Source: Patescibacteria group bacterium (GTDB taxonomy: Bacteria > Patescibacteriota > Patescibacteriia > JBAZBY01). Taken from it: 64,000 nucleotides of DNA. The notes below the pieces were generated by a model. The model was not told the DNA's origin, did not search any database, and saw only the letters and a list, made by a program, of their open reading frames with translations. Below, piece by piece: positions 8,742 through 42,983 of the stretch (positions are counted from its first letter, which is position 1; each line of letters starts with the position of its first letter). Position numbers and translations under genes: made by a program. Where the stretch lies: positions 690,060-754,059 of the forward strand of contig JBAZBY010000001.1 in assembly GCA_041671225.1 (NCBI GenBank). Direction: 5' to 3'.

Positions 8742-8839
8742 CGTATTCTCCTATCTTGGGGTTCTTGGCGGCACAGAGAAAAAAGGAGGGGACCACGCGG
8801 CACGAATGCAGCGCAGCCCCCTCAGGAACGAGCCGAGGA

Positions 8840-21358: not shown

Positions 21359-21428
21359 CCTCCTCACTGGAGTGGGGCCTACATTGAGCCCTTTGTTTCA
21401 TCTCTTGCATTGGAGAAGGAGGAGTTCC

Positions 21429-23896: not shown

Positions 23897-24048
23897 GTCG
23901 GGGGAAAGGAACAGTAACGTTACCCCGATGCCTATTTTCTTTTTTGGGGGCATTATTTTCACCGCATGTTTTATGTTCATCTTCAGCAAGAGACGACGCA
24001 TGAAAAAGCCGAATTCACAATATACGATTTTCATCTGGTGATTTCTTG

Positions 24049-24130
24049 CTTCCCGTCTGGTGGCAACCGGGAGGCCGGAAACTCGTCCAGCTTCTAGCTC
24101 AAGGTGGCTCGCACCTTACATCGGTCGCAG
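24049..24130. promoter_or_regulatory. conserved upstream box (family copy 1): tggcaaccgggaggccggaaactcgtccagcttctagctcaaggtggctcgcaccttacatcggtcg
   Basis: about 80 percent identical over about 70 nt to 33301-33370; partial copies at 36149-36190 and 22718-22745; always 90-220 nt upstream of a start codon. Confidence 0.4.
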
Positions 24131-24160
24131 ACACGCGGCCACAGATAGAGGAGGTACGCA

Positions 24161-24820
24161 ATGTACCGCATACGAAACACGTGGAGTGTTGCGACGTGTT
24201 GGGTCGCGATCCTCTGCATGCTTACCATCCCGTTGCTCTCCGGGTGCTCAGAGGACCACGCGCAGGTCATTGCTCCGCCGCAGGAGCAGACCGCGCCCTC
24301 GGTGCCGGATCAGTACGCACAGTATGAGGCCCAGGGAACGCTGATCCAGCAGTGGATCGATCGCATGGACCCGTACGTCACGCAGAACGCCGACGGCACG
24401 TTCGTCTGCGACTGGCAGGCGTTTCAGCAGGATCTCGCGCGCACCAATCCCCAGATTGCGCTGGCTCTCAACGGCGCCGCCACTCCGGGCAAGGACGCCA
24501 AGGTGATCGTGGAACTGCGCGACGGAATTCCCATCGCCAACAAGGCGCTCAAGGAGCAGCCCGAGGGCATGACGCAGACCGCGTCCACGCGTTGCTACTG
24601 GCGCTGGTGGGGTCGCACCTGCTGCTACACCGGCTGGGATGCTGAAGTTGCCGTATGGACCAATGCCGCCGCGGCTGTCGTGGCGGGCATCGCCGGAGGT
24701 CCGATCGGCGCGGGGGTGGTCGCCTACATCGCGTGGGTAGCTGAACGTCTCACCGATCAGTGTGGTGGGTTCTGCATCAACGCAACGTGGGTTGGCGGCT
24801 TCTGGCTTACCTGTCCGTAG
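24161..24820 (+). CDS. lipoprotein with a Cys/Trp/Gly-rich hydrophobic C-terminal region
   Basis: lipobox 'LLSGC'; C-terminus 'CYWRWWGRTCCYTGW...AAAAVVAGIAGGPIGAGVVAYIAWVA...DQCGGFCINATWVGGFWLTCP', reminiscent of Gly-rich bacteriocin-like peptides. Confidence 0.6.
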   Translation: MYRIRNTWSVATCWVAILCMLTIPLLSGCSEDHAQVIAPPQEQTAPSVPDQYAQYEAQGTLIQQWIDRMDPYVTQNADGTFVCDWQAFQQDLARTNPQIALALNGAATPGKDAKVIVELRDGIPIANKALKEQPEGMTQTASTRCYWRWWGRTCCYTGWDAEVAVWTNAAAAVVAGIAGGPIGAGVVAYIAWVAERLTDQCGGFCINATWVGGFWLTCP

Positions 24821-26684: not shown

Positions 26685-28424
26685 ATGACAACAAAGATTG
26701 CGCTTCTCGCTGCACTCGGACTCGTAGTGCTTTTTGGTGCCGGTCTCGGTGTGGGGTATGTGCTTTTTGCCGATAATGAGCCTGTTCAGGAGACGGTAAA
26801 CATCAACGGACCCATAAGCGTTGCTGATACCGTCGAGACGAATGAAAATGTGAATCTCGCGCTTGCCGATGAGACGGACGTGAGCCCTTATGAAGAAGAA
26901 ATCACCGTTGATGAAGATATCAAACCGTTTCCGTCCGAGCCCGTGGAGGGGGATGACAGCGTGACGGATATTCCCGCAATGGATATTTTTGATCCGGTGG
27001 CGGAGTTTAATTACGGGCAGTATGAGCGGGAAAACGCGCGTTTTTACAGCGCAGGTACCGTTGAAAGCGGCGCGTATGCCGGTGGAGAAATGGTTCTTCT
27101 GGTATTTTATCCCGAGGGTCCGGTTTTTTATCCGACGATGGCGCGCTTTGTGCGTGACGGCGATGAGTTGACTTTACTTTCCCTGCATTCCTCAGGCTGG
27201 CTGGATATTCTCGACGACAGCAAGTTCACAACGGATTCTCAAACGCTGCTGCCGGAATACAATTATCCGGCGGTTCTGCTCGGGCCGGATCAGCGGCAGA
27301 TCCTCCGCCTCGACACAGATGTGCAGGCCTTCTTTGATCCGGCCGGACTGGAAGTTGCGTTTACCGATGAAACCTGGGGGCCGGTATACCGGGCAAACGG
27401 AAGCAACACCGCGGAGAATATTTATGCCAAGAACGGTTTTTATCTGAACGCGCCGGACGGCACAGTGCGCGTCTACGGGCTTGATGTGGATTTTCAGGAT
27501 GAGAACGATATTCTGAACATCACCTGGAATAACGGCGAACGGAGTTATTGGGCATATTCCATCGGTGATGTGGGCGGCTGCGGATTGCAGAACTATATCT
27601 CCGTGATTGATGACGGATCAGTGGTGATTGAGCGCGACCTGGTGAAAACCGGAACGTCCAATTTTGGTGATGTGATATACGAGTATGCGGATTCCGATGC
27701 CGCATTCCTGCATGATTGGTATGAGAACGGGTATTGGGGGCAATGGAATGACGTGACGCAGGATTTGGAGAAAGATACCTATGAGAATTATCTCGTCATG
27801 CACCCTTTCATTTTCTGGGTGGATCCGTTTGACCGTCTTGTCCGCGCAATGAATAGCGCATTCCTGCCTGCTGCGGAATGCGGCAAGCCGGTTATTTACC
27901 TTTATCCGGATAAGCCCACATCCGTGCAGGTGACCGTTGAGCCAAAAGGAGGGTTCTCATACACCGACCCGGCATATAATGATGGCTGGCAGGTGACCGC
28001 TGATGCTGATGGCCGCCTCTGGAACAGCGACGGTACCGTCTATCCGTATCTCTTTTGGGAAGGTCGGGGAGCCGCACTCTATGACACTCCAGACCGCGGA
28101 TTTGTGGTGGCGCAGCAAGATGTTGACGGGTTCCTGAGCGAAAAACTCACCGCATTGGGCCTCCGCGGACGGGAGATCACGGACTTCAAGGAATTCTGGC
28201 TTCCCCGCATGCAGGAAAAACCGTGGTATTTTGTGACCTTCCTTGGGAATCAGGCGATGGAGACGCTTGCGCCGCTCACGGTCACACCAGCACCAGACAC
28301 AGTGATCCGTGTGCTCATGGACTTTACCGCACTTGATGCGCCGATTTCTGCAGAGCCTTATACCATTCATACGCCGGAGCGCAAAGGATTCACGGTTATT
28401 GAGTGGGGCGGCGTACTGCGGTAG
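26685..28424 (+). CDS. hypothetical exported protein (579 aa)
   Basis: signal anchor 'IALLAALGLVVLFGAGLGVGYVLF'; acidic, Trp/Tyr-rich; no known domain. Confidence 0.6.
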   Translation: MTTKIALLAALGLVVLFGAGLGVGYVLFADNEPVQETVNINGPISVADTVETNENVNLALADETDVSPYEEEITVDEDIKPFPSEPVEGDDSVTDIPAMDIFDPVAEFNYGQYERENARFYSAGTVESGAYAGGEMVLLVFYPEGPVFYPTMARFVRDGDELTLLSLHSSGWLDILDDSKFTTDSQTLLPEYNYPAVLLGPDQRQILRLDTDVQAFFDPAGLEVAFTDETWGPVYRANGSNTAENIYAKNGFYLNAPDGTVRVYGLDVDFQDENDILNITWNNGERSYWAYSIGDVGGCGLQNYISVIDDGSVVIERDLVKTGTSNFGDVIYEYADSDAAFLHDWYENGYWGQWNDVTQDLEKDTYENYLVMHPFIFWVDPFDRLVRAMNSAFLPAAECGKPVIYLYPDKPTSVQVTVEPKGGFSYTDPAYNDGWQVTADADGRLWNSDGTVYPYLFWEGRGAALYDTPDRGFVVAQQDVDGFLSEKLTALGLRGREITDFKEFWLPRMQEKPWYFVTFLGNQAMETLAPLTVTPAPDTVIRVLMDFTALDAPISAEPYTIHTPERKGFTVIEWGGVLR

Positions 28425-28598
28425 GACTCGTGATACTCAAAACGACAACCCGCTCACTCATTGGGCGGGTTTTGGTTTGGCAGAAGTGGATAACTACCAC
28501 GTTCTTTCTCTTGACAGTGCATTCGTCGGGTATACACTTGAACTATCACTGGTGGCGAAGTGCTCATTTTGAGCGCGCCACTCGTTTTATATAAAGAT

Positions 28599-30196: not shown

Positions 30197-31300
30197 ATGC
30201 AATCAACACCCGTCAGTCCAAAAAAACCAATGAGCCCGATGCCATGGATTGTCCTTGGTATTGTGATTGTTCTTGCTGCCGTAGGTTTGTGGTATGTGGT
30301 TGGGCAGGGGAATGGGGCGGATGAGAATGCGAATATTGCTGTGGTAAATACCAATACGACAGGCAATCAAAATGTGAGCATAGTCAATATTAATGCAACA
30401 GTTGATACGAGTGGGTGGGTGACACACACTAATACGCAACTTGGTTTTACGATAAAACATCCTCAAAACTGGACAGCAAGAATTGTTGGTAGTGAACCGG
30501 AATTAAATCAACAGGAGGCGGATTCGGTCTTGTCAGAGGGGCAGTGTGCCGAGGGCGAGGTATGCGAAATATCAGAGGGGTACTGTACTATTACCATTGG
30601 TCAACTGCCATATCCCTTCACTTCAGAAAAAAATATAGACCTCGTTCTTGATGATTTGAGGACGCGTGCGCGCTCCCCAATCGTAGAGGTGACATTCCCA
30701 AATTTTTCCGGATATGTTACCGACACCGCGGCAAGTCCCCCTGATGAAAATGGTGATCAACTACTGGGGAAATATTATCTTCTTCAGCTTAATAATCAAG
30801 TTCTCCACGCCATATTGGGCACGGGTTATTTGCGAGAGGATTGTAGGAATGCACTGCACGATATTCTTTCAACATTCAGTACAGACTTAGTAGTCGGCTT
30901 CGATGCCGGTGACTTGGTGACATATATCAATCAGGAGCATCAATATTCTTTTCAGTACCCCCCAACACTAACCGTTCAGGACTATACGAGTTTAAGCTTA
31001 TCAGACAACGATAAGCTTGTTAGTCGCATCTTAGTTCCCGTTGCGGAAGGCGACTATTTCATCGAAGTTACAAAATATAGCGGTACGCTTGACGAAGTGA
31101 AAGAAGCACTTCGCAATCGTACTGCAAATGCGATATGGTTGCCTGGTACTCTTGATATGCAGGAGGCAGAATACACACGGCGGTCATATAATCTTGATGA
31201 GTCATTTTTTGAGTACATATATCTTGTCTCACGAGAGAAGTACGTTTTTGTGGTTTCAGTTTTTGATCAGAGCATCCTTAATACTTTTCATTTTCTGTAA
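30197..31300 (+). CDS. hypothetical exported protein (367 aa)
   Basis: signal anchor 'WIVLGIVIVLAAVGLWYVV'. Confidence 0.55.
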   Translation: MQSTPVSPKKPMSPMPWIVLGIVIVLAAVGLWYVVGQGNGADENANIAVVNTNTTGNQNVSIVNINATVDTSGWVTHTNTQLGFTIKHPQNWTARIVGSEPELNQQEADSVLSEGQCAEGEVCEISEGYCTITIGQLPYPFTSEKNIDLVLDDLRTRARSPIVEVTFPNFSGYVTDTAASPPDENGDQLLGKYYLLQLNNQVLHAILGTGYLREDCRNALHDILSTFSTDLVVGFDAGDLVTYINQEHQYSFQYPPTLTVQDYTSLSLSDNDKLVSRILVPVAEGDYFIEVTKYSGTLDEVKEALRNRTANAIWLPGTLDMQEAEYTRRSYNLDESFFEYIYLVSREKYVFVVSVFDQSILNTFHFL

Positions 31301-31378: not shown

Positions 31379-33181
31379 GTGTTTACGCCCAGAAAGGCGG
31401 ATGCAGTGTTGCGCATTCTGATCACGGTCGTTGCGCTGGTTCTGTCAGCTGGAACTGCACAAGCGGCCAAGGTTCTCTGGTTTCCCTTCGACTACCCGAT
31501 CTCCGTCACCTGTGGGTTTGGGTGCTACACAGTACCCATCCATCATGACGGTGTGGATTACTCCTGCCCTGAAGGGACCTCCCTCTACGCCGCGATTGGT
31601 GGAACGGTAAAGAAGGTGGTGAACTCCGTATCGGGCCAGGTGTGCAGTTCACCGAATTTCGGCAACTACGTGCTCATTGAGAACACGCAGTATGGCGTTC
31701 AGGTGATCGAGGCACACATGCTGGCAGGCTCCATTACCGTTGTTGAAGGGCAGGTGATCACCGCAGGCCAGTACATCGGCAAATCCAGCAATTCTGGATA
31801 CACGATGACGCTGGTCAACGGGGTCTACAAATGCGGATATGGCGGAGGTCATCACCTTCACCTTGAGACGCGCGTTCTCATCAACGGCAGGTGGGTTGCG
31901 GTGGATCCCTATATCTATAATGGAGGGCTCTGGACCAGCCCCCTCCAGTACGGGAACGATTCCAACTGCACCCTCGCTTCCTCCTCCGAGGCGAAGTCCC
32001 AGATCACGGCGTGCCGGAACAGGAACACCTGGCTCGGCAGCGCGACCTCGGGATTCCACCAGTGGAAGCCCTCGGGCGGCAACGGCAAGTGGGTCTACAT
32101 CATCGATTACCAGAAGGGGTCCGTGGTGTTTGACGCTCTTGGCGGTGCGGAGAAGGCATATGCCGTGAGTAGCTACATGCTCGGTTGTTGGGCCGCGGAT
32201 CACGGTTGCGCTGGTTCTCGGCTCGGTTGTCCGATCACTGAACGCTACGCCTGGAACGGTGGGCTGCGCATGGACTGGAACTACGGGTATACATTTGAGA
32301 AGGCCGGCATTTCCTGCGGTCCCATCAAGTGGGGTACGGCGGGCTATTACGGCCCTGGCACGTTTGCGGGCTACGCCATCGATTGCCAGGCGACGTACAA
32401 GTTCGCTGCGTGCTATGCGCGTCATGGCGTTGGGAAGCTCGGGTATCCCGCGTCGGGAAATGGAATTCTGCCGTACGTGCATACCATCGGCAGCAATCCC
32501 AACATCCTCGCGCAGGATTTCAAGGGTGACCAGTGGGACAATGTTGTGCTGCTCTACGACCGTGAAGCGCCGCAGTATGCGAGCATCGTCGCATCCTTCT
32601 GCCCGTCACCCAACACGCCGGATCAGGCAAGCGAACTTCATGGCGGTTTCCGCGGCTACTGGGAAGCGAACGGTCGCTTCAGCACCATCGGCGTTCCGTT
32701 CACGGATGAAGTGCCGGTTTTCGGTAAGCCGTGGATCGTCTACCAGCGGTTCATCCGGCGATCCGGAAGCAACTGGGTCGCGTGCGAGCTCCGTTACTAC
32801 CCGAATGGCAGTGTGTCGAAAGCCACGCTGTTCACGAAGGCGGTTACCGTAAGCTCTGTCGACGTTGAAATTGACATCGTGGACGACACGCAGGAAAGCC
32901 CTGCGCCTCGCCCGGTGCTTCTCCTCAGCCCCAACCCGACGGCAGGCAGCAGCACCATCCAGTTCTCCCTTCCCACCGAGGGACAGGTTGCACTGCAGGT
33001 GTTTGATATCGCTGGCCGGCTGGTGGCCACGCTCCTGGACGAAACGCGTCCAAGCGGAGAATACCAGATTTCCTGGGATGGAAAGGACGGACAGGGCAAT
33101 GCGGCGGCAAGCGGAATCTACTTCGTTCGTCTCGCAACTCCTTCCTTCCAGACCACCAAGCGTCTCGTGGTACTCCGTTAG
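31379..33181 (+). CDS. M23 (LytM-type) metallopeptidase with a C-terminal T9SS-type sorting domain
   Basis: signal peptide; 'HHDGVDY...GNYVLIEN...GHHLHLE' (HxxxD/HxH); large Trp/Gly/Tyr-rich middle region; last about 85 aa 'LLLSPNPTAGSSTIQFSLPTEGQVALQVFDIAGRLVATLLDE...GEYQISWDGKDGQGNAAASGIYFVRLATPSFQTTKRLVVLR' match the Por/T9SS C-terminal domain pattern; GTG start. Confidence 0.75.
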   Translation: MFTPRKADAVLRILITVVALVLSAGTAQAAKVLWFPFDYPISVTCGFGCYTVPIHHDGVDYSCPEGTSLYAAIGGTVKKVVNSVSGQVCSSPNFGNYVLIENTQYGVQVIEAHMLAGSITVVEGQVITAGQYIGKSSNSGYTMTLVNGVYKCGYGGGHHLHLETRVLINGRWVAVDPYIYNGGLWTSPLQYGNDSNCTLASSSEAKSQITACRNRNTWLGSATSGFHQWKPSGGNGKWVYIIDYQKGSVVFDALGGAEKAYAVSSYMLGCWAADHGCAGSRLGCPITERYAWNGGLRMDWNYGYTFEKAGISCGPIKWGTAGYYGPGTFAGYAIDCQATYKFAACYARHGVGKLGYPASGNGILPYVHTIGSNPNILAQDFKGDQWDNVVLLYDREAPQYASIVASFCPSPNTPDQASELHGGFRGYWEANGRFSTIGVPFTDEVPVFGKPWIVYQRFIRRSGSNWVACELRYYPNGSVSKATLFTKAVTVSSVDVEIDIVDDTQESPAPRPVLLLSPNPTAGSSTIQFSLPTEGQVALQVFDIAGRLVATLLDETRPSGEYQISWDGKDGQGNAAASGIYFVRLATPSFQTTKRLVVLR

Positions 33182-33282
33182 ATCCGCCAGCGCCCCTTGG
33201 CGCAGGCAGAAGCTCCTTCACTCTCAACCCCGGGGTGTGCCGTGACCTTTCCAGGTCTCTGGCCACGACGCACCCCCCTTTT

Positions 33283-33370
33283 TTCCGCTCTCCCGAGCGG
33301 TGGCAGCCGGGAGGTCAGAAATTCGTCTGGTTTCTAGCATAAGGTGGCTTGCACCTTGACAGCGGTCGTC
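33283..33370. promoter_or_regulatory. conserved upstream box (family copy 2): ttccgctctcccgagcggtggcagccgggaggtcagaaattcgtctggtttctagcataaggtggcttgcaccttgacagcggtcg
   Basis: see 24049-24130; contains TTGACA. Confidence 0.4.
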
Positions 33371-33407
33371 TCTTTTGGAGGCGGCCAAGAACAGAAGGAG
33401 ATAGACG

Positions 33408-34079
33408 ATGAAGCGGTTTATCCTGCTCATCACGCTCATCGTCGTTTCTTTGGTGTTCGCGGCAGCGCCCATCAACGCGCAGCAGCCCATCCAAGAGACG
33501 ACCTGGGGGAGGATCAAAGTTCAGTATGGGGAGCAGACCCATTTGGATCGGCCCAATACTCTGGATCCGAAAAGCATCGGAGCATACACGGCAATCGCCT
33601 GGCCGTTCCCCTGGGAGAGCCCGAACGACTGGCGCGGCGATGAAGGTGATCGTACGGACGGTGGTTGGTATAACTCGCGATGTGCCGGCTGGATTCCGAC
33701 GCACAGCGGTGCCGATCACTATGCTCGCGACCTTTCGCGGAGGTACAAGTCCACGGCTGGCGCGCGCGTCTACGCCGGACTTACCGCGAAGGTCGTGAAA
33801 ATCGAGAAGTATGGCGCCGGGTGGAGCGTCGTACTGTACTATCCGAAACAGCGACTGTGCATACGCTACGCCCACATGGACGGCATCGTCGTGAACGTTG
33901 GTTGGACTGTGTCCATGCGGCAGTACCTTGGATACGTTCTTGACCAGGGGAGTGGGTCTCACCTGCATCTGGTCGTTTATGAGAATGTGCCGGAGGGTTC
34001 AAACGGCTTCCCCGCGTATATTCCGAGCGTCTGTAACAGGGACACGTGGCACGCCTGCCGGGTCTACTTCTTCTCCTGA
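33408..34079 (+). CDS. secreted M23-family peptidase (small)
   Basis: signal peptide 'LLITLIVVSLVFAAAPINAQ'; 'HSGADHYARD' (HxxxD) and 'GSHLHLV' (HxH). Confidence 0.6.
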   Translation: MKRFILLITLIVVSLVFAAAPINAQQPIQETTWGRIKVQYGEQTHLDRPNTLDPKSIGAYTAIAWPFPWESPNDWRGDEGDRTDGGWYNSRCAGWIPTHSGADHYARDLSRRYKSTAGARVYAGLTAKVVKIEKYGAGWSVVLYYPKQRLCIRYAHMDGIVVNVGWTVSMRQYLGYVLDQGSGSHLHLVVYENVPEGSNGFPAYIPSVCNRDTWHACRVYFFS

Positions 34080-34153
34080 TGATCACGCGGGCGCCTCGGA
34101 AGCAAGGTCTTATCTTCTGAGGCGCCCGCACATAATTCCTACGATATATTTCT

Positions 34154-34738
34154 ATGAATCATATATTCAAAAAAATCAGCACGATACTTTTTTTTGTCAT
34201 TCTTTTATTTATTGCCACATGGTTTGTTTTTCAGGATCAAAGTAAGAATACAGGGGGAAAAAAGGACAGGTGGTCATCAGATGGTCTTGGTTTTCGGGTT
34301 CTGCTTCCAGAAACACTAGTTTTTTTTGACACATCCTCGCGTCAAATGGATGATGGCGAGATTCAAACCGTATCCTTCATTATTGAAGGGAGTGCAGACC
34401 CTGCCGATCCGTATGTCCCGCCCTCGTTAATGGTTTCCGTTCTTCCGAGTATGGGGCGCACTGCATCATTTTGGGCTGATCGCAAGATTTTTGGGGGATA
34501 CCCAGAGGGTACCGTTGTGTCTGATCGCATAGCCTCCTCAATTGCGAGAGAGGATTGTGTACAGCAAAAGGAGGGCATCAACGCAGGCATGCCAACTGAA
34601 CAAACCCTGATGCATGTTCATTATTGCGTTCACGATGATCAACTGTATATGCTTGGAATTCTTGCGAACACGGAATCTATGTTTTCCACTTTTGAAAATC
34701 TTGAGAAGGACTTCGTTCGGGATTTTGAATTCCTCTAG
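34154..34738 (+). CDS. hypothetical membrane-anchored protein
   Basis: signal anchor; no motif. Confidence 0.5.
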   Translation: MNHIFKKISTILFFVILLFIATWFVFQDQSKNTGGKKDRWSSDGLGFRVLLPETLVFFDTSSRQMDDGEIQTVSFIIEGSADPADPYVPPSLMVSVLPSMGRTASFWADRKIFGGYPEGTVVSDRIASSIAREDCVQQKEGINAGMPTEQTLMHVHYCVHDDQLYMLGILANTESMFSTFENLEKDFVRDFEFL

Positions 34739-34785: not shown

Positions 34786-36147
34786 ATGAATAAGAACATC
34801 ATTCTTGTCAGCCTGGCAGGCATTATTGCTGTCGTGACACTGGGTATTTTTATGATGTCTTTTACGAGGACAGAAGAAGGCAACAATACAACAACGAACC
34901 AGACCCAGCGTGTGAACGCCGCTGAGACGACAAAACGCATTCCAAATACTTTGTTCGAAAATGAGGGTGCGCTTGTGAAGGTGAATTTTAAGGGTGAAGA
35001 TTATTTGTTTGCAACAAGTGTCTATAATATGTTACGTCCCGGATCAACAGGCTCCGAAGAACTTATCCTGCAAGGTGAAGAGTGGCAGCCGATTTTGTAT
35101 TCATCGCTTCATGCGAATGATGTTCTTTTTCCCGGAGGACCACTGCTCCGTTTTGATCAAAGAACGCAGGAGATCTCCGAAACCGTCTCTCGCGATGAGT
35201 ATTTTCTTCGTGTGTATAACATAGAAAATGGCAACCTTGAAAATACTATTAGCTATCACACGGGAGATACCATTTTGACCTCGGGGGTTGAGATTGAAGG
35301 CGACGTTAAATATACGAATGTTTCCAGCGACTATCTCGTTGATTTTGCGGTGGATGCTTCGAACAAAAAGATCTATATGCTCGTCGCGATAGATGGTTCC
35401 AGCGGTGCGCTCTGGGGTGATTCAACATCAGAATCTTCTGTGGAAATTATTGAGGTTGACGTCGTGAATGGTACCGCTGAGAGTATTGTCTCATTCACAA
35501 GTGAAAAAGCTACTCTCGTGCATGAGGATGAGGCCGATACATGGTTATTGCCAACAGAGATTCATTATGTTGAAGGAGCGGTGCTTCTTACATGGAGAAA
35601 TAAACTGGAACGTGTCGATCTTCTTACTGGAAACCGTCAGGACATTCTTTCCTTGACGCAGGAAGATTGGGATGCAAACCGACAACTATCCGTTGAGAGT
35701 AACCCAACTGGCACAGCGGCCATTATCTTTGATTCAGTGGGGTATATGACGAATGAGGAAGAAAGTTCAATTCGATTATTCAACGCAGCTGACCGTACTC
35801 TCTCGGTCATTGGCCCGCTTTCTGCTGATATTGTACAACAACATCCTATTTGGAATGACTCAGGTACGCAGATGGTTACGACATCAAATACGAGTTCCAC
35901 CATCTATCAAATATCACTCGAAAATAATACACTGACATCGCTTGATAACATGGTCGTTGAGAGGGTTTATGATTGGCTTCCGTCAGGCGAGTTATTGGTA
36001 AGTATTTTTGATGTGTACGAGGATCCTGATGAGATTCCGGAAACGGACAGTAACTATCGTTCACAATTTTATCTCTACAATTTGGAAACAGGGCTTGGAG
36101 CGTCGTTAGGGAATTATCGCAGCCCGCATTATTTCGGCAGGGTATAG
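34786..36147 (+). CDS. hypothetical exported protein (453 aa)
   Basis: signal anchor 'IILVSLAGIIAVVTLGIFMM'. Confidence 0.55.
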   Translation: MNKNIILVSLAGIIAVVTLGIFMMSFTRTEEGNNTTTNQTQRVNAAETTKRIPNTLFENEGALVKVNFKGEDYLFATSVYNMLRPGSTGSEELILQGEEWQPILYSSLHANDVLFPGGPLLRFDQRTQEISETVSRDEYFLRVYNIENGNLENTISYHTGDTILTSGVEIEGDVKYTNVSSDYLVDFAVDASNKKIYMLVAIDGSSGALWGDSTSESSVEIIEVDVVNGTAESIVSFTSEKATLVHEDEADTWLLPTEIHYVEGAVLLTWRNKLERVDLLTGNRQDILSLTQEDWDANRQLSVESNPTGTAAIIFDSVGYMTNEEESSIRLFNAADRTLSVIGPLSADIVQQHPIWNDSGTQMVTTSNTSSTIYQISLENNTLTSLDNMVVERVYDWLPSGELLVSIFDVYEDPDEIPETDSNYRSQFYLYNLETGLGASLGNYRSPHYFGRV

Positions 36148-36148
36148 C

Positions 36149-36190
36149 CTTCCGCTCTCCCTCCTAGCAGCCGGGAGGTCAGAAAGGCAA
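36149..36190. promoter_or_regulatory. partial copy (5' half) of the conserved upstream box: ttccgctctccctcctagcagccgggaggtcagaaaggcaatg
   Basis: matches 33283-33325. Confidence 0.35.
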
Positions 36191-36224
36191 TGTTTGAATG
36201 CGCTTTTGCGGTATTTTGGTTTTG

Positions 36225-36253
36225 TTGCGAATCCTAGCGGGAAGTGGTATAAT
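36225..36253 (+). promoter_or_regulatory. sigma70-like promoter: TTGCGA, 17-nt spacer, extended -10 TGgTATAAT
   Basis: about 115 nt upstream of the sensor-domain paralog array. Confidence 0.5.
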
Positions 36254-36368
36254 TTTTTTCAGAGAACAACTGAATTTTCTATACTCATGGAACCAGTAAT
36301 TGGGGCGGAGGGTTCCGGACTCACTTATTTCAATACCTATCCAAGGCCATAGCGGCTTTGTTTTTTGT

Positions 36369-37037
36369 ATGGATTTGATTACCGCATTACTTTTTCTTGT
36401 CGGTATCGCCGATGTGGTGATTGGCGTATATATTGGCATACAAAAACCAGTGACCACCATCCGTAAATCGTACACATGGGTGGTGTTTGGAACAGCTGGG
36501 TGGGTATTGGCGAATGCTGTTTTTCGACTTATGAGCACGGATGCCGCTGTTGAAATTGCGGAACGCCTCACGTTCTTATTCGGCACCGTAGCGACATCAG
36601 CCTTTCTCTACTTCTCTTTCGTTTTCCCATATACAAAGCGTCCCCTGAAGCAATGGATGTTTTTGTATGTAGTTTTAAGTGCTGTCGTCATTTGTATTTT
36701 TGCCTTATTTACAGAATTTTTTCTTGTTAGAAGCGTTTCAGTTGGATCACATGAAAGTATCAGTACCTATGGACAATTCTACGCAGTATTTTTTATTTGG
36801 TTTATTGGTACTTGGATATGGAGTATTGCGAATCTTCTATTGAAGTATAAGGATGCAGATGCGTTTTCTCGTTGGCAAATACGCATGATGCTGTTTGCGG
36901 TTCCGTTAACAATTATTCTCGCAATTCTTTTTGATCTCATTGCGCCGTATCTCCAGATTGCTGGCACAGGGTGGTTCGCTTCAGTATCATCGGTTATTTG
37001 GCTGGGTTTTACTGTTTATATTGTGATGAAACGATGA
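36369..37037 (+). CDS. stand-alone polytopic membrane sensor-domain protein, paralog A (ends ...YIVMKR)
   Basis: about 7 TM helices; 'DAFSRWQIRMM' block; homologous to the N-terminal membrane domain of the histidine kinase at 40191; stop overlaps the next start (ATGA). Confidence 0.65.
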   Translation: MDLITALLFLVGIADVVIGVYIGIQKPVTTIRKSYTWVVFGTAGWVLANAVFRLMSTDAAVEIAERLTFLFGTVATSAFLYFSFVFPYTKRPLKQWMFLYVVLSAVVICIFALFTEFFLVRSVSVGSHESISTYGQFYAVFFIWFIGTWIWSIANLLLKYKDADAFSRWQIRMMLFAVPLTIILAILFDLIAPYLQIAGTGWFASVSSVIWLGFTVYIVMKR

Positions 37038-37699
37038 ACACCACCGACATCCTTTCCTGGTTCAACATCGTGGTTGCCGCAGCAGAGCTCTATTTTGCAT
37101 TCTATATGCTGCTCACGCGCGTGCGGAGCAAGGTGAGCGTTTTTTATTTTTTGTTTTCCCTTGGAGTTGCGGGGTGGGTATACAGCATCGGCGGGTTTTA
37201 TCTGTTTGAGAATCCAGGGGTCGAGCGGTTTCACCTCAACCTCGCGTATATTTCCGCCTCGCTCATCATGTCGGCGCTCTTTCTCTTTGCCATGGTGTTT
37301 CCTTTCCAGAAGCGGCGACTGGGGCTGGAACACTATGCACTCGCGATCCTTCCATTCCTGGCATTTGCGGTCGCATCCTTCGCGCATCAGATCCTCACCG
37401 GTTACATCAAAGATCCCACGGAGTATTTCCTTGGTCCGCTGTACACGCCGTACACCATCTATATCGTGGGATATTATCTCATTGCCATGGCGCTGTTGGT
37501 GGAAAAGTACCGTATGAGTGACGGCATCCACCGCTGGCAGCTCAAGAATCTCATTTTGAGCCTGCTCTTTGCGGGCGTCATGGGCGTTACCTTCAACCTG
37601 CTGATCCAATTCTGGGGCATCGCGTATCTGAACCACGTGGGAACCCTTGCGTCGGTCATTTGGTTCAGCACGACCTTATACATTGTGATGAAGAGATGA
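37034..37699 (+). CDS. stand-alone membrane sensor-domain protein, paralog B
   Basis: 'DGIHRWQLKNL' block, ends ...LYIVMKR; ATGA overlap at both ends. Confidence 0.65.
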   Translation: MNTTDILSWFNIVVAAAELYFAFYMLLTRVRSKVSVFYFLFSLGVAGWVYSIGGFYLFENPGVERFHLNLAYISASLIMSALFLFAMVFPFQKRRLGLEHYALAILPFLAFAVASFAHQILTGYIKDPTEYFLGPLYTPYTIYIVGYYLIAMALLVEKYRMSDGIHRWQLKNLILSLLFAGVMGVTFNLLIQFWGIAYLNHVGTLASVIWFSTTLYIVMKR

Positions 37700-38376
37700 T
37701 TGACCAGCCATATTTTGCAATTGCGGCCATGATAATAATAGGGCTTTTTGATTTTGGATTCGCATCCTTTATTTTTACCCGCTATCAACGAGAGTCGCGG
37801 ATTATCATGTATGGCATGTTTGCGCTGATGGTTGGTGGGTGGGTTCTCCTCAATGGGGTTGGTCTACTCTTTGAGCGAGGCGGTGCAACCTCAGATTTTT
37901 TTGGTCGAAGTGCATTTGTCTTTGCGGCTTTCATTTTTCCGTTTATGTATGTCTTCTCTGTTCTTTTCCCATTCCCATCAGCGCGTATTGACGGACGGTT
38001 CGTTTTTCTTGCCCTGCTGCCGGCAATACTTTTGTCCGCCCTTGCATACTTCACCGACGCACTCATTCAGGGGTTTGATTTAACTCGGTATGCACAAACA
38101 ATACCCGGTGAGGGTTTTTGGCTCTACGTGCTGTATATACTGATATTCTTTGGATTAATTCTTGCGGAACTCCTCGGTAAATTCCGGCGTTCCGATGGCA
38201 TTCATCGCTGGCAACTAAAGTACTTAATTATTGTCATAGCCCTTTCTGGCTTTATCGGCATTATCACGGTACTTATTTTGCCTTATATCTGGTACTTTGA
38301 CTCACTTGCATGGATTGGGCCATGTTCATCAATCATTTGGCTTGGTGGGAGTATGTATATTGTTATGAAGAGATGA
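37696..38376 (+). CDS. stand-alone membrane sensor-domain protein, paralog C
   Basis: 'DGIHRWQLKYL' block, ends ...MYIVMKR. Confidence 0.65.
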   Translation: MIDQPYFAIAAMIIIGLFDFGFASFIFTRYQRESRIIMYGMFALMVGGWVLLNGVGLLFERGGATSDFFGRSAFVFAAFIFPFMYVFSVLFPFPSARIDGRFVFLALLPAILLSALAYFTDALIQGFDLTRYAQTIPGEGFWLYVLYILIFFGLILAELLGKFRRSDGIHRWQLKYLIIVIALSGFIGIITVLILPYIWYFDSLAWIGPCSSIIWLGGSMYIVMKR

Positions 38377-38440
38377 TTTATTTACGACAGCAATAAGCAC
38401 GTCTAATTTCTACTTGATTAGTTTTCCCAGGTACTGACAA

Positions 38441-39142
38441 ATGAGTTATATTATTAGAAAAGTAAAATCAGTTTTTAAAACTATTTATTTCACTTTTTTT
38501 TATAAAGAATTATTTAAAGATTACCGCTTTACTATTAGTAAAGCTTCGACTGAAGTAGAACGAAGGGAGTTGTATCGATTAAGATACCAGGTGTACTGCG
38601 AGGAATATGGTTATATTGATAGGAATAACTGTCCAGACGGATTAGAAAAAGATGTTTATGATGAGCATTCAGATTACTTTATTATTCGTGATAGTAAAAA
38701 TAATATTGCTGCAACGGTAAGAATTATTAAGAATTCTCAAGCAGGATTTCCTCTTGAGAAAAATTTTCACCTAAATATTGAAACATCAAATCTTGATCAT
38801 GATCATTTAGTCGAGATTTCAAGACTTATAGTTGCTAGAAAGTATCGAAAAAAATTATTGCTATTGTTTCTAGTGAAGGGTTTATATTTGTATGCGATAG
38901 AACAAAAGATAACTCATGCATATTTTATAATCGATGAAAAACTCTATCCTCTTCTCTTGAAGATTAAAGTACCTGTAATAAAAATTGGAACACCGGCAAT
39001 CTATCAGGGTTTAACATTTCCATGTCTTGTTGATGTTACTGAATGGGAACGTAATGTTAGAAGAAGTAGAAGTTTTAATAGGTTTTATTATTTTGGCGGT
39101 ATGGATTTAAGCGATGACGGAAATAAGTATGAAGTTCATTAA
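38441..39142 (+). CDS. GNAT-fold N-acyltransferase of the FeeM / N-acyl amino acid synthase type
   Basis: 'RRELYRLRYQVYCEEYGYID....DGLEKDVYDEHSDYFIIRD', 'VEISRLIVARKYR' match the conserved blocks of the exosortase-associated N-acyl amino acid synthase family; very AT-rich. Confidence 0.65.
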   Translation: MSYIIRKVKSVFKTIYFTFFYKELFKDYRFTISKASTEVERRELYRLRYQVYCEEYGYIDRNNCPDGLEKDVYDEHSDYFIIRDSKNNIAATVRIIKNSQAGFPLEKNFHLNIETSNLDHDHLVEISRLIVARKYRKKLLLLFLVKGLYLYAIEQKITHAYFIIDEKLYPLLLKIKVPVIKIGTPAIYQGLTFPCLVDVTEWERNVRRSRSFNRFYYFGGMDLSDDGNKYEVH

Positions 39143-39159
39143 GATTTACGAGGGATACC

Positions 39160-40194
39160 GTGCAAGGCATTCAAGATAATTTGGGCGAGTATTTTAATTT
39201 TACGCCAGGTGTTTTTCTATATATATATATACTAACATTTATTCCATCATGGATCGCACTGATATTATCACTTCGTTATCTTAAGAGACGCAACATTCAC
39301 GCTAGTCTCTTTTGGCTCATTATCCTTTTTGGTTTATTGGCCTTGCCGTATCTGTATGTATTAGTTGGGAGCGTAGGTCTTCCTTGGCAATTTTTGAGCG
39401 CGATTATTCTCATTCCGACATACAGCTTCTCAAAAATTTTAATGAACAGAAAAACATATTCTGATACCTTCGGGGGTTCATTTTTTTGGACTTTATATGC
39501 AAAAGTGTATGATTTGTTGCTTCTTTTCAGTCCCTATAAACAACTTGTATCTCAGCTTTTAGAAGAAATAAGAGTAACTAAGCCAGCTGGGAATATTATT
39601 GATATTGGTTGCGGTACAGGAAATCTTGCGGTGTCACTTTCTGCGAATACAAACTATACTATTTTAGGAATAGATAATTCTATTGGAATGCTTACGCGTG
39701 CACAAAAAAAACATTATGATAAACAAAGGGTGCTTTTTCAAAAAGTTGATCTAGAGAATGAAAATTTTATATCTGAGATAGATGGAAAATTTGATATTGC
39801 TATTATTAGTAATGTGCTTTATACACTTGGGTCACCAATTATGGTTCTTAAGCAAATCAAAGCATTATTAAACAATGATGGCTTCTTAATTATCTCAGAA
39901 CCTAAGCAGGGTTCTAGTTTATATGCTTTATTCAAAGAGCACTATAGACAATTGTTTAGTCATTTTAGTATTAATAATCTAATCATATCTGTTAGGGATT
40001 TTTTTATTTTATTAGTTGTTGGTGTATTTAATTTTGCAATTTCTTTTAGAGCACGGGGTAGGGGGTCATATTCTTTTTTTTTACCGCACAATCTTACTCA
40101 ACTAGTTCAGGAATCTGGATTCAGTATTGAAAAAATTGGTGCGTCTTATGCAAACCAAAATATCTTACTTAAAGCAAAAAAAATACTAACATGA
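39160..40194 (+). CDS. membrane-anchored class I SAM-dependent methyltransferase
   Basis: 2-3 N-terminal TM helices, motif I 'IIDIGCGTGNLAV', 'DIAIISNVLY'; stop overlaps the histidine kinase start (ATGA). Confidence 0.7.
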   Translation: MQGIQDNLGEYFNFTPGVFLYIYILTFIPSWIALILSLRYLKRRNIHASLFWLIILFGLLALPYLYVLVGSVGLPWQFLSAIILIPTYSFSKILMNRKTYSDTFGGSFFWTLYAKVYDLLLLFSPYKQLVSQLLEEIRVTKPAGNIIDIGCGTGNLAVSLSANTNYTILGIDNSIGMLTRAQKKHYDKQRVLFQKVDLENENFISEIDGKFDIAIISNVLYTLGSPIMVLKQIKALLNNDGFLIISEPKQGSSLYALFKEHYRQLFSHFSINNLIISVRDFFILLVVGVFNFAISFRARGRGSYSFFLPHNLTQLVQESGFSIEKIGASYANQNILLKAKKILT

Positions 40195-42983
40195 ATGCAA
40201 TTCTTGTTTTTTCTTCTGTTCTAGCAGCCCTTGTATTTATTTTAGGTGTCGTTATTTTGTTGCGGGGAAAAAATCAGAGAACGAATATTGTATTCTCATT
40301 GATTACTTTATCAGCATTTTTGTGGACTGTTTCAAATATATTTGTAGATACCTCATATACTTCTTCTGCTGCATTGTTTTGGAGTCGTACGGCGTTACTT
40401 GGGCCGATTTTTATTGCAAGCCTTTTTGTGATTTTTGTTTCGATTTTCCCTTCTGGCGTGCTAAGTCTTCAGAAAAAATTATTTTATTCACTCCCAATTC
40501 TTCCGTTCCTACCGTTTATCTATACAAACTCAAATATCTCAGCTGTTAAATTTGTTAATGGGACAGTTCAAGCAACACCAGGAGTATTATTCTATTTTGT
40601 GCTAGTCTATTTTGCAGTATTTTTTGGGTTTGGATTTTGGACACTTATTCAGAAATATAGAAAGTCTTACGGTTTACAACGACAGCAGATCACTTATGTA
40701 TTTTTGGGATTTTTTCTTACTGTAGGAATCGCAACCTTCACAAATTTATTGTTACCACTTTTTGGGATTCAAAATGTGCAAAGCCTTGGGCCAGCTTCTA
40801 CATTTTTTCTTATATCATTTATTGGCTATGCAATCATTCGCCATCGTCTCCTTGACATAAGTATCATCATTAGACGGTCCATCGTCTATGTCTTCCTCAT
40901 CGCATTTGTTGCCGGTTCCTTTGCAGGCGTCACCTTCCTCTCCGGACGTCTATTTTCAGAGGCCCTCGGTCTCGGGCAATTTCTCACTTCCGGCCTCGTT
41001 GCTTTACTGGTTGTTCTTCTTCTTGATCCTCTCAAAAATTATATTTCTCGCGTAACAGACAAAATTTTCTTTAAGGCAAAAATTGATTACAGTACCGTCC
41101 TGCAAAAACTCTCAACGACCATGGCAGAAAAGATCGAGATGGACCCGTTGTTGGAAGAAGTTGCGCATATAACAAAAGAAGAGCTCAAGGTAGAATCTGT
41201 GATAACGATCCCAAAGAACAAGCAGGGGAACTTTCGCGCACGCGTGAACCGTCCGCCGCATGATATGTCTCTCATTTTGAAGCAGGATTCTGAGCTCATT
41301 AAATTCCTTTCAACAGGAGAGATTTCTGTATTGGATTCCTTAGAGCGCAAGATCGAAGACACCACAAATGACCGTGAGCGTAAGAAGCTTGAAAAATCCA
41401 AAGAAGACATGAAGCTTGCCCATGCAGCTATTGCCGCGCCCATCATGCGCAAAGGGGAACTCACAGGGGTCTTTTTTATTGGGCCAAAGAAGTCCGGCGA
41501 TAGCTTTTCCCTTGAGGAGCTCCGGCTTTTCAAAGTGCTGGGGCCTCAGCTTGCAACTGCCCTTGAAAAGGCGCGCCTCTTTGAAGAGGTAAAAGCCTTT
41601 ACCGCGCAGTTGCAACAGCGCGTTGAAAGCGCAACCAAGGAATTGCGGGAACGGAACGCATACCTTGTTGCCTTGCAGGATGTCTCCGCGGCCATCACCC
41701 GCACGTTTGACTTTGATAAAGTCACGCAAGAAATCACGAATGCGATTGCGGATGAACTTGGTTTTGTCGGCGGGCTTATGGTGTTTCTCGATAACGATGG
41801 ACGGAACGTCTTTCCGCAGGCAATCACACAAACAAAGATAACAGAGCGCGCCCTAAAACTTCTGCCAACGAACTTCAAGGAGTTTAAGGGAGATCTCTAC
41901 AAAGAGAATACGCTGGATCACCGCGTTATCCGCGAAGGCAAACGCAGGATTACCACACAGCTTTCTGACGTTATTTCACCACCGGTTCCAAAATTGATCG
42001 TGAAAGGAATTCAGAAGCTGCTTGGCATTAAGACATTAGTACTCGTCCCAATTTTTTCGGAAGATAAAGCAGTGGGAGCGATTGACTTTGCACTTGCGAA
42101 AGAGGAGAAAGATATCAGCGCCCGTGAATTTGAAATCATGCAGGCACTTGCAGACCAAACAGGGATCGCGTACCGGAACTGGCGGTATGTTGAACGTATT
42201 AAAGAAGCAAACCGGCAGCTTGAAGACGCAAATGAGCGCCTGATGCAGCTGGATCAGGCGAAGACGGAGTTCGTCTCAATTGCTTCTCACCAGCTCCGCA
42301 CGCCAATGACCGGCATCGCGGGGTATCTTTCTATGCTGGTGGGAGGGGACTTTGGCAAGCTCATCCCTGAGCATGGCAAAATTTTGAAGCAACTGCTTGA
42401 AGAAAGTCAACGCATGATACGGCTCATCAACTTGTTCCTCAACGTCTCCAAGATCGAAGCGGGCAAGTTTGAGCTTACCTTCCAACCCACCCAGCTTGAG
42501 GACGTGGTGGAGGGTGAGGTGAAGGAATTAATTCGCTTGGCAGCAGAGAAGAAGCTCAAACTCACCTTCAATAAACCAAAGAAAAAGCTTCCTCTTGTGA
42601 CGGCTGATGGCGACAAACTGAAGGATGTTATTTTGAACCTTGTGGACAATGGCATTAAATACACGGCAGAGGGGAGTATCGTTGTGGATATGGCAAAGGT
42701 TGGGAATGAGGTGCATGTTTCCGTGAAGGATACCGGCATCGGCATTGAACCGGATGATGCAAAACATTTGTTCCAAAAGTTCGTCCGCGCTTCCGGCATC
42801 GCGCAGATCCACCCTGATGGTTCCGGCTTGGGACTCTTTATCGCAAAGAAGATCGTTGAGGCGCACGGCGGCAGCATTTGGGTTGAAAGCAAAGGGCAGG
42901 GCAAGGGCAGCACGTTCTTTTTTGCCATTCCAATCGAAAAAGCAAAGGTCTTATCAGCAGCGACAACAACAAAGAAAATATGA
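40191..42983 (+). CDS. sensor histidine kinase: polytopic N-terminal membrane domain, GAF-type domains, HisKA, HATPase_c
   Basis: H-box 'SIASHQLRTPMTGIAGYLSML', N-box 'LNLVDNGIKYT', G-boxes 'DTGIGI' and 'GSGLGLFIAKKIVEAHGGSIW'; first about 660 nt AT-rich like the upstream insertion. Confidence 0.9.
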   Translation: MNAILVFSSVLAALVFILGVVILLRGKNQRTNIVFSLITLSAFLWTVSNIFVDTSYTSSAALFWSRTALLGPIFIASLFVIFVSIFPSGVLSLQKKLFYSLPILPFLPFIYTNSNISAVKFVNGTVQATPGVLFYFVLVYFAVFFGFGFWTLIQKYRKSYGLQRQQITYVFLGFFLTVGIATFTNLLLPLFGIQNVQSLGPASTFFLISFIGYAIIRHRLLDISIIIRRSIVYVFLIAFVAGSFAGVTFLSGRLFSEALGLGQFLTSGLVALLVVLLLDPLKNYISRVTDKIFFKAKIDYSTVLQKLSTTMAEKIEMDPLLEEVAHITKEELKVESVITIPKNKQGNFRARVNRPPHDMSLILKQDSELIKFLSTGEISVLDSLERKIEDTTNDRERKKLEKSKEDMKLAHAAIAAPIMRKGELTGVFFIGPKKSGDSFSLEELRLFKVLGPQLATALEKARLFEEVKAFTAQLQQRVESATKELRERNAYLVALQDVSAAITRTFDFDKVTQEITNAIADELGFVGGLMVFLDNDGRNVFPQAITQTKITERALKLLPTNFKEFKGDLYKENTLDHRVIREGKRRITTQLSDVISPPVPKLIVKGIQKLLGIKTLVLVPIFSEDKAVGAIDFALAKEEKDISAREFEIMQALADQTGIAYRNWRYVERIKEANRQLEDANERLMQLDQAKTEFVSIASHQLRTPMTGIAGYLSMLVGGDFGKLIPEHGKILKQLLEESQRMIRLINLFLNVSKIEAGKFELTFQPTQLEDVVEGEVKELIRLAAEKKLKLTFNKPKKKLPLVTADGDKLKDVILNLVDNGIKYTAEGSIVVDMAKVGNEVHVSVKDTGIGIEPDDAKHLFQKFVRASGIAQIHPDGSGLGLFIAKKIVEAHGGSIWVESKGQGKGSTFFFAIPIEKAKVLSAATTTKKI

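Follow-up and report, generated by a model that had tools for sequence, protein, structure and literature searches.

We analyzed a 64-kb stretch of DNA, here called the window, from a Patescibacteria (CPR) MAG. At its center, a gene predicted to encode a membrane-anchored protein with two PsbP-like ectodomains is followed, in the same orientation, by genes for a large and a small secreted M23 peptidase. The features of this locus are listed in Table 1. The GC content rises from ~0.40 to 0.55-0.63 at ~31.38 kb and drops back at ~34.13 kb, and the two M23 genes have GC3 values of 0.712 and 0.723 versus 0.365-0.427 for four flanking genes and ~0.5 for housekeeping genes. A sequence-only reading had described this block as markedly richer in GC than its neighbors and as containing a second secreted M23 enzyme preceded by a conserved box. 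The sharp edges and GC3 values agree with the former, and the peptidase domain of the second enzyme and a genuine box upstream of it agree with the latter. The block is not unique in composition since ~7 of the 54 window genes have a GC3 of at least 0.68.

Table 1. Features of the locus, with positions as counted in the window.
Feature	Position	Strand	Description
Third leader and box copy	24045..24160	+	upstream of Cys-rich secreted protein gene 24161-24820; nhmmer E 4e-34
Partner gene	30197..31300	+	367 aa: N-terminal membrane anchor, Asn/Thr-rich linker, two PsbP-like ectodomains
Large hydrolase gene	31379..33181	+	600 aa: signal peptide, M23, LGFP-like repeats, T9SS-type C-terminal domain
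Signal peptide, Sec-type	31379..31465	+	residues 1-29, ...SAGTAQA/AK; read from sequence
M23 catalytic domain	31544..31888	+	residues 56-170; PF01551 46.7 bits
Middle region, LGFP-like	31964..32893	+	residues ~196-505, ~3 units; candidate cell-wall-binding module
T9SS type A-like C-terminal domain	32927..33172	+	residues 517-598 of 600; Ig-like beta-sandwich
Leader upstream of small M23	33283..33407	+	38-nt inverted-repeat box (33283-33321), two hairpins, then RBS
Small secreted M23 peptidase gene	33408..34079	+	223 aa; PF01551 42.2 bits
GC-rich hairpin, 3' edge of GC-rich block	34087..34129	+	16-nt arms, 94% complementary
Second box copy	36150..36186	+	exact 19-mer; upstream of sigma-70-like promoter (36225-36253) and first HisKA_7TM gene

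The sequence is of CPR origin. Database records label the proteins as Patescibacteria, the exact large hydrolase is present in the NCBI MAG GCA_041665645.1 ('Patescibacteria group bacterium'), and the same proteins were found on 57-kb and 1.03-Mb contigs from several sources. The outer membrane has been proposed to be absent from Patescibacteria (PMC12102498), and the producer is probably a tiny bacterium of this group that lacks one.

Domains of the large hydrolase

An alternative GTG start codon at 31406, which may be the true start, gives a 591-aa form of the large hydrolase that is also on record (P0020). By inspection, both M23 proteins appear to have Sec-type signal peptides. The large protein shows a hydrophobic core followed by an AQA/A site, and its N-terminus aligns with the signal peptides of four relatives (P0004-7). 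The Pfam cut-off for Peptidase_M23 (PF01551) is 28.7 bits and both proteins score above it. The metal-binding and catalytic motifs are intact. HxxxD corresponds to H56-D60 of the large protein, where HxH follows at positions 159-161 of the same fold, and the small protein has H99-D103 and H185-x-H187. Judged by these scores and motifs, both proteins are members of peptidase family M23. The M23 module of the large protein is 59-67% identical to P0004-7, and among solved structures its sequence is closest to zoocin A (5kvp, E 4e-4), in an alignment that spans the first M23 motif (HxxxD).

An AlphaFold2 model of the whole protein from a 7-sequence alignment had a mean pLDDT of 41. The C-terminal tail was its only confident part (pLDDT 70-88) and there was no confidence in the middle region, which was therefore identified by profiles. 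This 310-aa region appears to be LGFP-like, a cell-wall-binding repeat type. Its profile matches the LGFP domain of C. glutamicum PS1/MytA (6swz, E 8e-9; 6sx4, E 1.2e-7) and also retrieves canonical LGFP proteins with 6-8 LGFP repeats. The Pfam LGFP model (PF08310) does not match the query itself and gives 14.8-16.1 bits in four relatives, below its cut-off of 22. MytA LGFP domains bind peptidoglycan-arabinogalactan, according to the summary in PMC11299179, and LGFP domains are read as wall-binding modules in actinophage lysins (PMC9671378). Two proteins, P0002 and P0003, are the sole relatives that share the full middle region, each with 53% identity; in both, this region and the same kind of tail accompany a CHAP-type enzyme domain.

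The tail scores 40.2 bits with NCBIfam TIGR04183 (cut-off 23; residues 517-598) and 31.8 bits with Pfam Por_Secre_tail PF18962 (cut-off 27; residues 518-598). Both scores exceed the curated cut-offs and, together with the PF01551 match, bear out the earlier description of the 600-aa protein as a LytM-type catalytic domain joined to a T9SS-type tail. The tail passes the Pfam FlgD_ig model (PF13860; 41.7 bits, cut-off 27) as well as it passes the T9SS models. Foldseek with the tail model found PorU (6za2), PorZ (5m11), and the substrate tails 8glk_D and 8gl6_D (target TM ~0.6). FlgD and Ig domains of Gram-positive subtilases matched similarly, so the fold is not specific to T9SS. Despite the PF13860 match, we rejected a FlgD hook cap because the FlgD N-terminal domain is missing, flagellar genes are not present nearby, and the remainder of the protein is M23 and LGFP-like. 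From its profile scores and fold, we consider the tail to be homologous to T9SS type A sorting domains. A scan of contigs from named genomes recovered relatives of the tail only, at 29-46% identity, and a protein search with the tail alone gave 44 candidates with one weak match.

T9SS acts across the outer membrane and requires at least 20 proteins (PMC8754138), and it has been described as specific to the FCB superphylum (PMC12398890). None of its machinery (PorK/L/M/N, SprA/Sov, PorV, PorU) was found among 46 ORFs of the window that were scanned with Pfam and matched no T9SS family, and a custom tail HMM run against the six-frame translation of the window matched the large hydrolase ORF only. 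The earlier statement that no other T9SS component or substrate is visible here thus stands. T9SS parts were likewise not found in ~70 kb of related CPR loci (L001, L034, L040, L041), and the taxon suggests that the system is absent genome-wide (PMC12102498). If the outer membrane is absent, as proposed, the tail cannot act as a T9SS signal. It is kept and swapped as a module, with a probable role as a surface or binding domain of the Ig-like kind or as the signal of another route. Automatic annotation already labels such tail-bearing proteins, and the observation itself is not hidden. Our full-text literature searches found no paper that addresses T9SS-type tails on Patescibacteria hydrolases.

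A conserved gene pair in a hypervariable locus

Comparison with L040, the corresponding locus of a close relative, revealed that the locus is hypervariable. The flanks are 89-90% identical in DNA, and between them the N-terminal ~490 codons of the large gene have been replaced and neighboring genes swapped. The tail is 91% identical to that of L040. Relative to L040, the tail segment has a dS of 0.085, compared with 0.42 in the flank and 0.88 in the small M23 gene; the dN/dS of the tail is ~0.55, a value from 13 substitutions that cannot show selection. Judged by its closest matches, the large gene is a mosaic of three modules with three different nearest relatives, namely P0004-7 for the M23 module, P0002 and P0003 for the middle region, and L040 for the tail.

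The combination of M23, LGFP-like region, and tail occurs in at least eight protein clusters, of which the named ones are all CPR, and the tail is thus no isolated orphan. Hydrolases of M23, C39-like, and CHAP type that bear such tails recur across several Patescibacteria and Parcubacteria MAGs (P0062 and P0050 are from Parcubacteria), and the syntenic position in L041 holds a C39_2 protein with a tail, an M23 protein with a tail, and another two M23 genes. This recurrence shows that the group maintains and exchanges the tail as a module. The sequence-only reading had proposed that the sorting domain is an orphan acquired with the gene. This proposal is not supported as worded because the gene was not taken up as one piece, its modules being 59-67%, 53%, and 91% identical to their nearest relatives, and because such tails recur in CPR.

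GC3 is above background here and in three other CPR loci. The nearest M23 relatives adjoin serine recombinases, a relaxase, and a split comM on GC-rich contigs that resemble mobile elements (L036, L039, L166, and L167, the putative donors), and their GC3 matches the local background there. The earlier claim that the block holds horizontally acquired lytic enzymes is thus upheld as to their lytic identity and is plausible as to horizontal origin, given the GC3 contrast and the mobile-element neighbors, with acquisition as a single piece contradicted. We rejected a viral or phage origin, such as a prophage lysis cassette, since no relatives were found in viral contigs and there was one weak phage match.

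The large hydrolase gene and the gene upstream of it form a conserved pair. In five of the five loci with this M23 subtype, a membrane-anchored PsbP-like partner is encoded directly upstream in the same orientation, 49-115 nt away. The first ectodomain of the partner (D1, residues ~61-228) is 44% identical to the protein encoded immediately before the M23 enzyme in L166 (E 4e-55), and the second (D2, residues ~236-367) is 29-33% identical to those of the upstream genes in L167, L039, and L036. Five partner proteins have weak, sub-threshold matches to PsbP_2 (E 0.011-0.12), and there is a match to Imm25 at E 0.038. L040, which has another M23 subtype, also has another partner ectodomain, and the ectodomain type tracks the M23 subtype and not the tail. 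Because these genomes commonly encode membrane-anchored PsbP-like proteins, some of this adjacency could be incidental. The GC3 of the partner gene is 0.40 versus 0.71 for the hydrolase gene, which argues against a single recent joint acquisition. The PsbP-like protein is most likely the cognate partner of the M23 enzyme, and we regard it as a candidate, and probable, immunity or inhibitor protein.

The small peptidase and its leader

The small M23 family comprises nine clusters, and the named ones are all Patescibacteria. The protein is 83% identical to its ortholog in L040 and 56% identical to that in L041, with a dN/dS of 0.13 relative to L040. This enzyme is under purifying selection and may be a housekeeping one. 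In L040, L041, and L163, the small M23 gene has a neighbor encoding 369-391 aa for which we detected no homolog among the downstream genes of the window.

The box in the leader of this gene reads TTCCGCTCTCCC...GCAGCCGGGAGGTCAGAAA (33283-33321). The third copy (~24045-24081) has diverged, and none of the copies is expected by chance. The leader is conserved upstream of the small M23 ortholog in L040, L041, and L163 and partly in L165. A folded structure of the box has some support from a compensatory substitution in L165 and from L041, where the hairpin is kept in another sequence. L163 has a U-U mismatch, and most pairs are invariant across these loci. Rfam had nothing at or near the leader at either gathering or lenient thresholds. 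A metagenome scan with the leader pattern CCGGGAGGN{20,32}AAGGTGGC returned 120 loci, in none of which nhmmer found similarity outside the pattern itself, and we took them to be chance occurrences. We also considered the box as a recombination site of the cassette and rejected this because the L040 breakpoints (~28.43, 32.86, and 34.1 kb) miss the box copies.

Proposed function of the cassette and comparison with known systems

We propose, with a probability of about 0.6, that the block represents accessory DNA of a CPR genome, a cassette of effector-like, secreted peptidoglycan endopeptidases that is exchanged horizontally. The large enzyme would be exported by the Sec pathway and held on a cell wall by its LGFP-like repeats, where its lysostaphin/zoocin-type M23 domain is predicted to cut peptide cross-links. 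Its substrate is more likely the wall of a host or competitor cell than that of the producer. Use against a host or prey wall, which the sequence-only reading had put forward, would be consistent with how variable the locus is and with the conservation of the partner gene. Patescibacteria live attached to other microbes, and a hypervariable mobile cassette with wall-binding endopeptidases and a candidate immunity partner is a concrete and testable candidate for the interface at which they breach or remodel host walls.

Both enzymes could alternatively be housekeeping autolysins that, like ShyA, MepM, and LytM, remodel the producer's wall during growth and division, with the GC richness and the tail being historical accidents. 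This role is common for M23 enzymes, NCBIfam yields weak matches to MepM, ShyA, and DipM, and the small M23 gene holds the same position in three genomes with the low dN/dS given above. We consider this possible but on the unlikely side because genomes with ~90% identity in the flanks have exchanged both the catalytic and the middle module of the large gene, which would be unusual for an essential division enzyme. The family is also very small and patchy, as the distribution of the full middle region illustrates, its nearest relatives are on mobile elements, and the best solved relative is a bacteriolytic exoenzyme. Improbable, in our judgment, is a VirB1-like hydrolase that makes local openings in the wall through which type IV pili or a type IV secretion system could pass. 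Among annotated plasmids, those of Actinobacteria and Macrococcus carry the nearest relatives of the M23 module (28-34% identity), the relative in L167 is near a relaxase and a coupling protein, and a Saccharibacterium cannot grow epibiotically without the peptidase and lysozyme genes beside its virB4 (work cited in PMC12102498). Neither the window nor L040 or L041 has an adjacent gene for type IV secretion or pilus assembly, however, and the wall-binding repeats and partner gene better fit a freely acting effector.

That the large hydrolase is ordinary T9SS cargo, either because the organism has a T9SS or because the contig belongs to an FCB-group bacterium, would account for a tail that passes curated T9SS models and has its closest relatives in named genomes mostly in FCB-group MAGs. 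We find this very improbable since the gene is located between typical CPR genes on a 1.03-Mb contig and in independent assemblies, the window and related CPR loci yielded no T9SS family, and the outer membrane is the very structure proposed to be absent from Patescibacteria. The sharp GC steps at both edges are what would be expected of foreign DNA misjoined to a CPR contig during assembly or binning. Such a chimera is barely credible because the same junctions occur in separate NCBI, JGI, ENA, and Logan assemblies, the related strain with L040 holds the block between the same conserved flanks, and L041 has equivalent genes in the syntenic place.

An outer-membrane sorting tail on CPR hydrolases raises the question whether the tail has a second, T9SS-independent function or the envelope and secretion biology of these cells differs from what is assumed. 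In a broader proposal, which we regard as unlikely, T9SS-type tails would function in Patescibacteria without an outer membrane as the signal or anchor of an undescribed display or export route, or by docking the enzyme onto a T9SS-bearing host, for example via the tail-binding proteins of that host. They would do so within a recombining effector/immunity-like cassette that is perhaps co-regulated, via the shared upstream element, with the neighboring 7TM-sensor/N-acyl-synthase signaling locus.

The effector-like cassette that we favor resembles several known systems in part. With T9SS type A cargo of Bacteroidota and the FCB group, the large hydrolase shares the order of a signal peptide (here predicted by inspection), functional domains, and ~80-aa C-terminal sorting domain, as well as TIGR04183 and PF18962 scores above cut-offs and the fold of solved tails. 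It differs in that its host is a Patescibacteria MAG with a proposed lack of an outer membrane and no T9SS part seen, and in that its tail does equally well on the FlgD_ig model. Exoenzymes of the lysostaphin, zoocin A, and LytM type are likewise secreted Zn endopeptidases in which HxxxD and HxH motifs are followed by a wall-targeting module. Their targeting is by SH3b or a zoocin-type target recognition domain, whereas the query has LGFP-like repeats plus a T9SS-type tail. Known producers of such enzymes need self-protection. There it is a FemABX-type change of the cross-bridge, and here the candidate is an anchored protein.

The LGFP-repeat wall anchors of C. glutamicum MytA/PS1 and of actinophage LysA lysins share with the query ~50-aa repeats around an (L/I)G-x-P motif and placement beside a wall-active catalytic domain. 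Those anchors belong to Actinomycetota, whereas the query repeats, which are putative wall binders, are found in CPR, are strongly diverged, and are missed by the Pfam model. Effector-immunity pairs, such as T6SS amidase effectors with their periplasmic immunity proteins, differ in that the partner here is upstream and membrane-anchored, no dedicated secretion apparatus is linked, and the similarity to an immunity family is the Imm25 match only, and inhibition is putative. Common to both are tight linkage between a wall hydrolase gene and a gene for a small extracytoplasmic protein, travel of the pair on mobile DNA, and a partner type that goes with the catalytic type.

Two secreted M23 peptidases in a GC-rich block

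The sequence-only reading had described an M23 peptidase ending in a T9SS-type C-terminal domain (the tail) and a second secreted M23 enzyme behind a conserved upstream box, both in a GC-rich block and with no other T9SS item in the window, and each of these points was confirmed. Profile scans of the large hydrolase yielded matches to Peptidase_M23 (46.7 bits, residues 56-170), TIGR04183 (40.2 bits) and Por_Secre_tail PF18962 (31.8 bits, residues 518-598), and the C-terminal stretch also matched FlgD_ig PF13860 (41.7 bits), all above the curated cut-offs. The small protein scored 42.2 bits as an M23 peptidase. Both proteins retain the HxxxD and HxH motifs and, by inspection, begin with Sec-type signal peptides. 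For the large hydrolase, an alternative GTG start at 31406 would produce a 591-aa form, which is likewise on record.

Sharp GC steps occur at approximately 31.38 kb and 34.13 kb. GC3 is 0.71-0.72 in both M23 genes versus 0.37-0.43 in flanking genes and approximately 0.5 in housekeeping genes, and is equally high in several other genes of the window. GC3 is also a mosaic elsewhere, with values of 0.71-0.78 at 7317-8741(-), 8840-9307(-) and 21372-22148, the last encoding a product with an acidic, low-complexity C-terminal half, and just 0.21-0.25 at 38441-40194.

Besides a bacterial RNase P RNA and a single tRNA, the window encodes lower glycolysis, PFOR, acetate kinase and numerous anchored hypothetical proteins, a gene content that fits Patescibacteria. 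Two tandem cofactor-independent phosphoglycerate mutase paralogs (47176-50375) lie within the row of glycolysis genes. The exact 600-aa protein is found in an NCBI MAG labelled 'Patescibacteria group bacterium' (GCA_041665645.1) on a 57-kb contig. A 1,028,488-bp contig carries the 90% cluster of the large hydrolase together with the exact small M23. Since the first nucleotide of the 57.2-kb NCBI contig corresponds to approximately 21078 of the window, the window reaches past that contig and probably derives from the 1.03-Mb one. None of the 46 scanned ORFs of the window matched a T9SS family, and a purpose-built tail HMM found no second tail in its six-frame translation. The T9SS carries cargo across the outer membrane and requires at least 20 proteins (PMC8754138), and has been reported to be specific to the FCB superphylum (PMC12398890). 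Patescibacteria are proposed to lack an outer membrane (PMC12102498), and from this taxonomic placement, with the 64-kb window scanned, we infer that the organism very probably has no T9SS.

Genes of the locus and modules of the large hydrolase
Feature	Position	Description	Nearest relative	Identity
Partner gene, window version	30197-31300	two ectodomains
Large hydrolase	31379-33181	600 aa; same strand as small M23
Small M23 peptidase	33408-34079	223 aa; same strand as large hydrolase
M23 module of large hydrolase			P0004-P0007	59-67%
Middle module of large hydrolase			P0002, P0003	53%
Tail module of large hydrolase			L040 protein	91%

Modular architecture and exchange of the tail

Residues 196-505 of the large hydrolase have no Pfam match, and the AlphaFold model is unusable across them. 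A middle-region profile built from the large hydrolase, two related proteins (P0002 and P0003; Pfam shows an N-terminal CHAP domain in P0003 only) and the hydrolase of L040, the locus of a close relative, matched the LGFP domain of C. glutamicum PS1/MytA (6swz, E 8e-9; 6sx4, E 1.2e-7). An exhaustive search with this profile gave 292 representatives, some with 6-8 canonical LGFP repeats, and Pfam LGFP was sub-threshold at the corresponding places in four relatives. As summarised in PMC11299179, MytA LGFP domains bind peptidoglycan-arabinogalactan, and LGFP regions of actinophage lysins have been taken as wall-binding modules (PMC9671378). This profile, sub-threshold Pfam and literature evidence argues for a predicted order of signal peptide, M23, LGFP-like candidate wall-binding repeats and tail.

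The M23, middle and tail modules each have a different nearest relative (see the table), which makes the large hydrolase gene a mosaic, and its locus is hypervariable. In DNA sequence, the flanks of L040 share 89-90% identity with window 26711-28425 and 36167-36395. Between these conserved flanks, a 544-aa gene of the window is absent from L040, different sequence has replaced roughly the first 490 hydrolase codons, and another gene stands in place of the two downstream genes. At synonymous sites the flank has diverged by 0.42, the tail segment by only 0.085 and the small M23 by 0.88, an inequality that indicates repeated recombination at the locus. An anchored protein of 369-391 aa is conserved after the small M23 in three genomes (L040, 5408-6517; L041, 10708-11817; L163, 1750-2922); the window has two unrelated genes in its place (34154-34738 and 34786-36147).

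L041, from a more distant Patescibacteria MAG, has the same neighbourhood, bordered by SSB on one side and by three HisKA_7TM genes plus an N-acyl synthase on the other. The L041 cassette comprises C39_2 plus tail, M23 plus tail and two further M23 genes. Seven representatives with an N-terminal hydrolase followed by an LGFP-like region exceed a curated cut-off for the tail, while P0059, an eighth, stays below it; those with names that combine hydrolase, LGFP-like region and tail are Parcubacteria or Patescibacteria. The tail is thus a module retained and exchanged among hydrolases of Patescibacteria (CPR) rather than a stranded orphan.

The four nearest M23 relatives (P0004-P0007) carry FG-GAP/VCBS repeats and a tail. 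Large serine recombinases adjoin all four genes, and the loci have further mobile-element markers: a split comM in L036, just a comM fragment in L039, a relaxase and coupling protein in L167, and CBASS in L166. The CBASS operon (L166 1557-4285), which encodes a SMODS cyclase, an E2-like protein and a SAVED effector, immediately precedes the partner/M23 pair and shares the serine-recombinase element with it. GC3 of P0004-P0007 equals the local background (0.78-0.81 in approximately 62% GC DNA, 0.565 in 50% GC DNA), whereas that of tail-bearing genes exceeds the background in four CPR loci. This difference favours import of tail-bearing genes into CPR genomes, a direction of transfer that we infer. 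The sequence-only reading of horizontally acquired lytic enzymes, with an orphan tail if a T9SS is lacking, was partly right: GC3 and the serine-recombinase neighbours support exchange, the orphan tail does not stand, and the lytic role is predicted. We view these as horizontally exchanged, predicted lytic enzymes in an organism very probably without a T9SS.

Upstream box and neighbouring signalling genes

The box is a 38-nt inverted repeat (TTCCG..CTCCCG-loop with GGTGGC-CGGGAG..CRGAA). Copies in the window precede the small M23 gene, the gene at 24161 for a Cys-rich secreted protein, and the promoter that serves the first HisKA_7TM gene, upstream of the HisKA_7TM/N-acyl synthase cluster; small M23 genes in L040, L041 and two other related loci (L163, L165) are likewise preceded by the box. 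Two hairpins downstream of it keep their position, not their sequence, in L041. The box and leader had no Rfam match and covariation is sparse, leaving the box a candidate RNA structure or protein operator. Part of it, the exact 19-nt direct repeat GCAGCCGGGAGGTCAGAAA (33303-33321 and 36167-36185), occurs on either side of a stretch comprising the small M23 gene and the next two genes, at positions that do not match the recombination breakpoints relative to L040. The Cys-rich protein (24045-24820 including leader; 219 aa, GC3 0.80) belongs to no Pfam family; its gene shares the conserved leader with the small M23 gene, and a homolog (8780-9361) lies within the L041 hydrolase cassette.

The cluster at 36300-43411 encodes three tandem HisKA_7TM membrane proteins, a SAM methyltransferase, a 7TM-GAF histidine kinase, a response regulator and a FeeM/LuxI-like N-acyl synthase (38441-39142, GC only 0.30), and may be a signalling locus. 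The HisKA_7TM/N-acyl synthase cluster also flanks the hydrolase cassette in L041.

A candidate immunity or inhibitor partner

Each of the five loci that carry this M23 subtype has, directly upstream of the M23 gene, on the same strand and 49-115 nt away, a gene whose product is anchored in the membrane and contains an Asn/Thr-rich linker. One ectodomain of the window partner shares 44% identity with the L166 partner (E 4e-55) and the other 29-33% with those of L167, L039 and L036. Similarity to known families is weak (PsbP_2, E 0.011-0.12 in five partners; Imm25, E 0.038). Because L040 differs from the window in both M23 subtype and partner ectodomain despite a nearly identical tail, partner type tracks the catalytic domain of the M23 enzyme. 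Such tracking is the behaviour expected of an immunity or inhibitor protein and speaks against the partner being a receptor for the tail. Overall, the locus resembles a cassette of the effector/immunity type.
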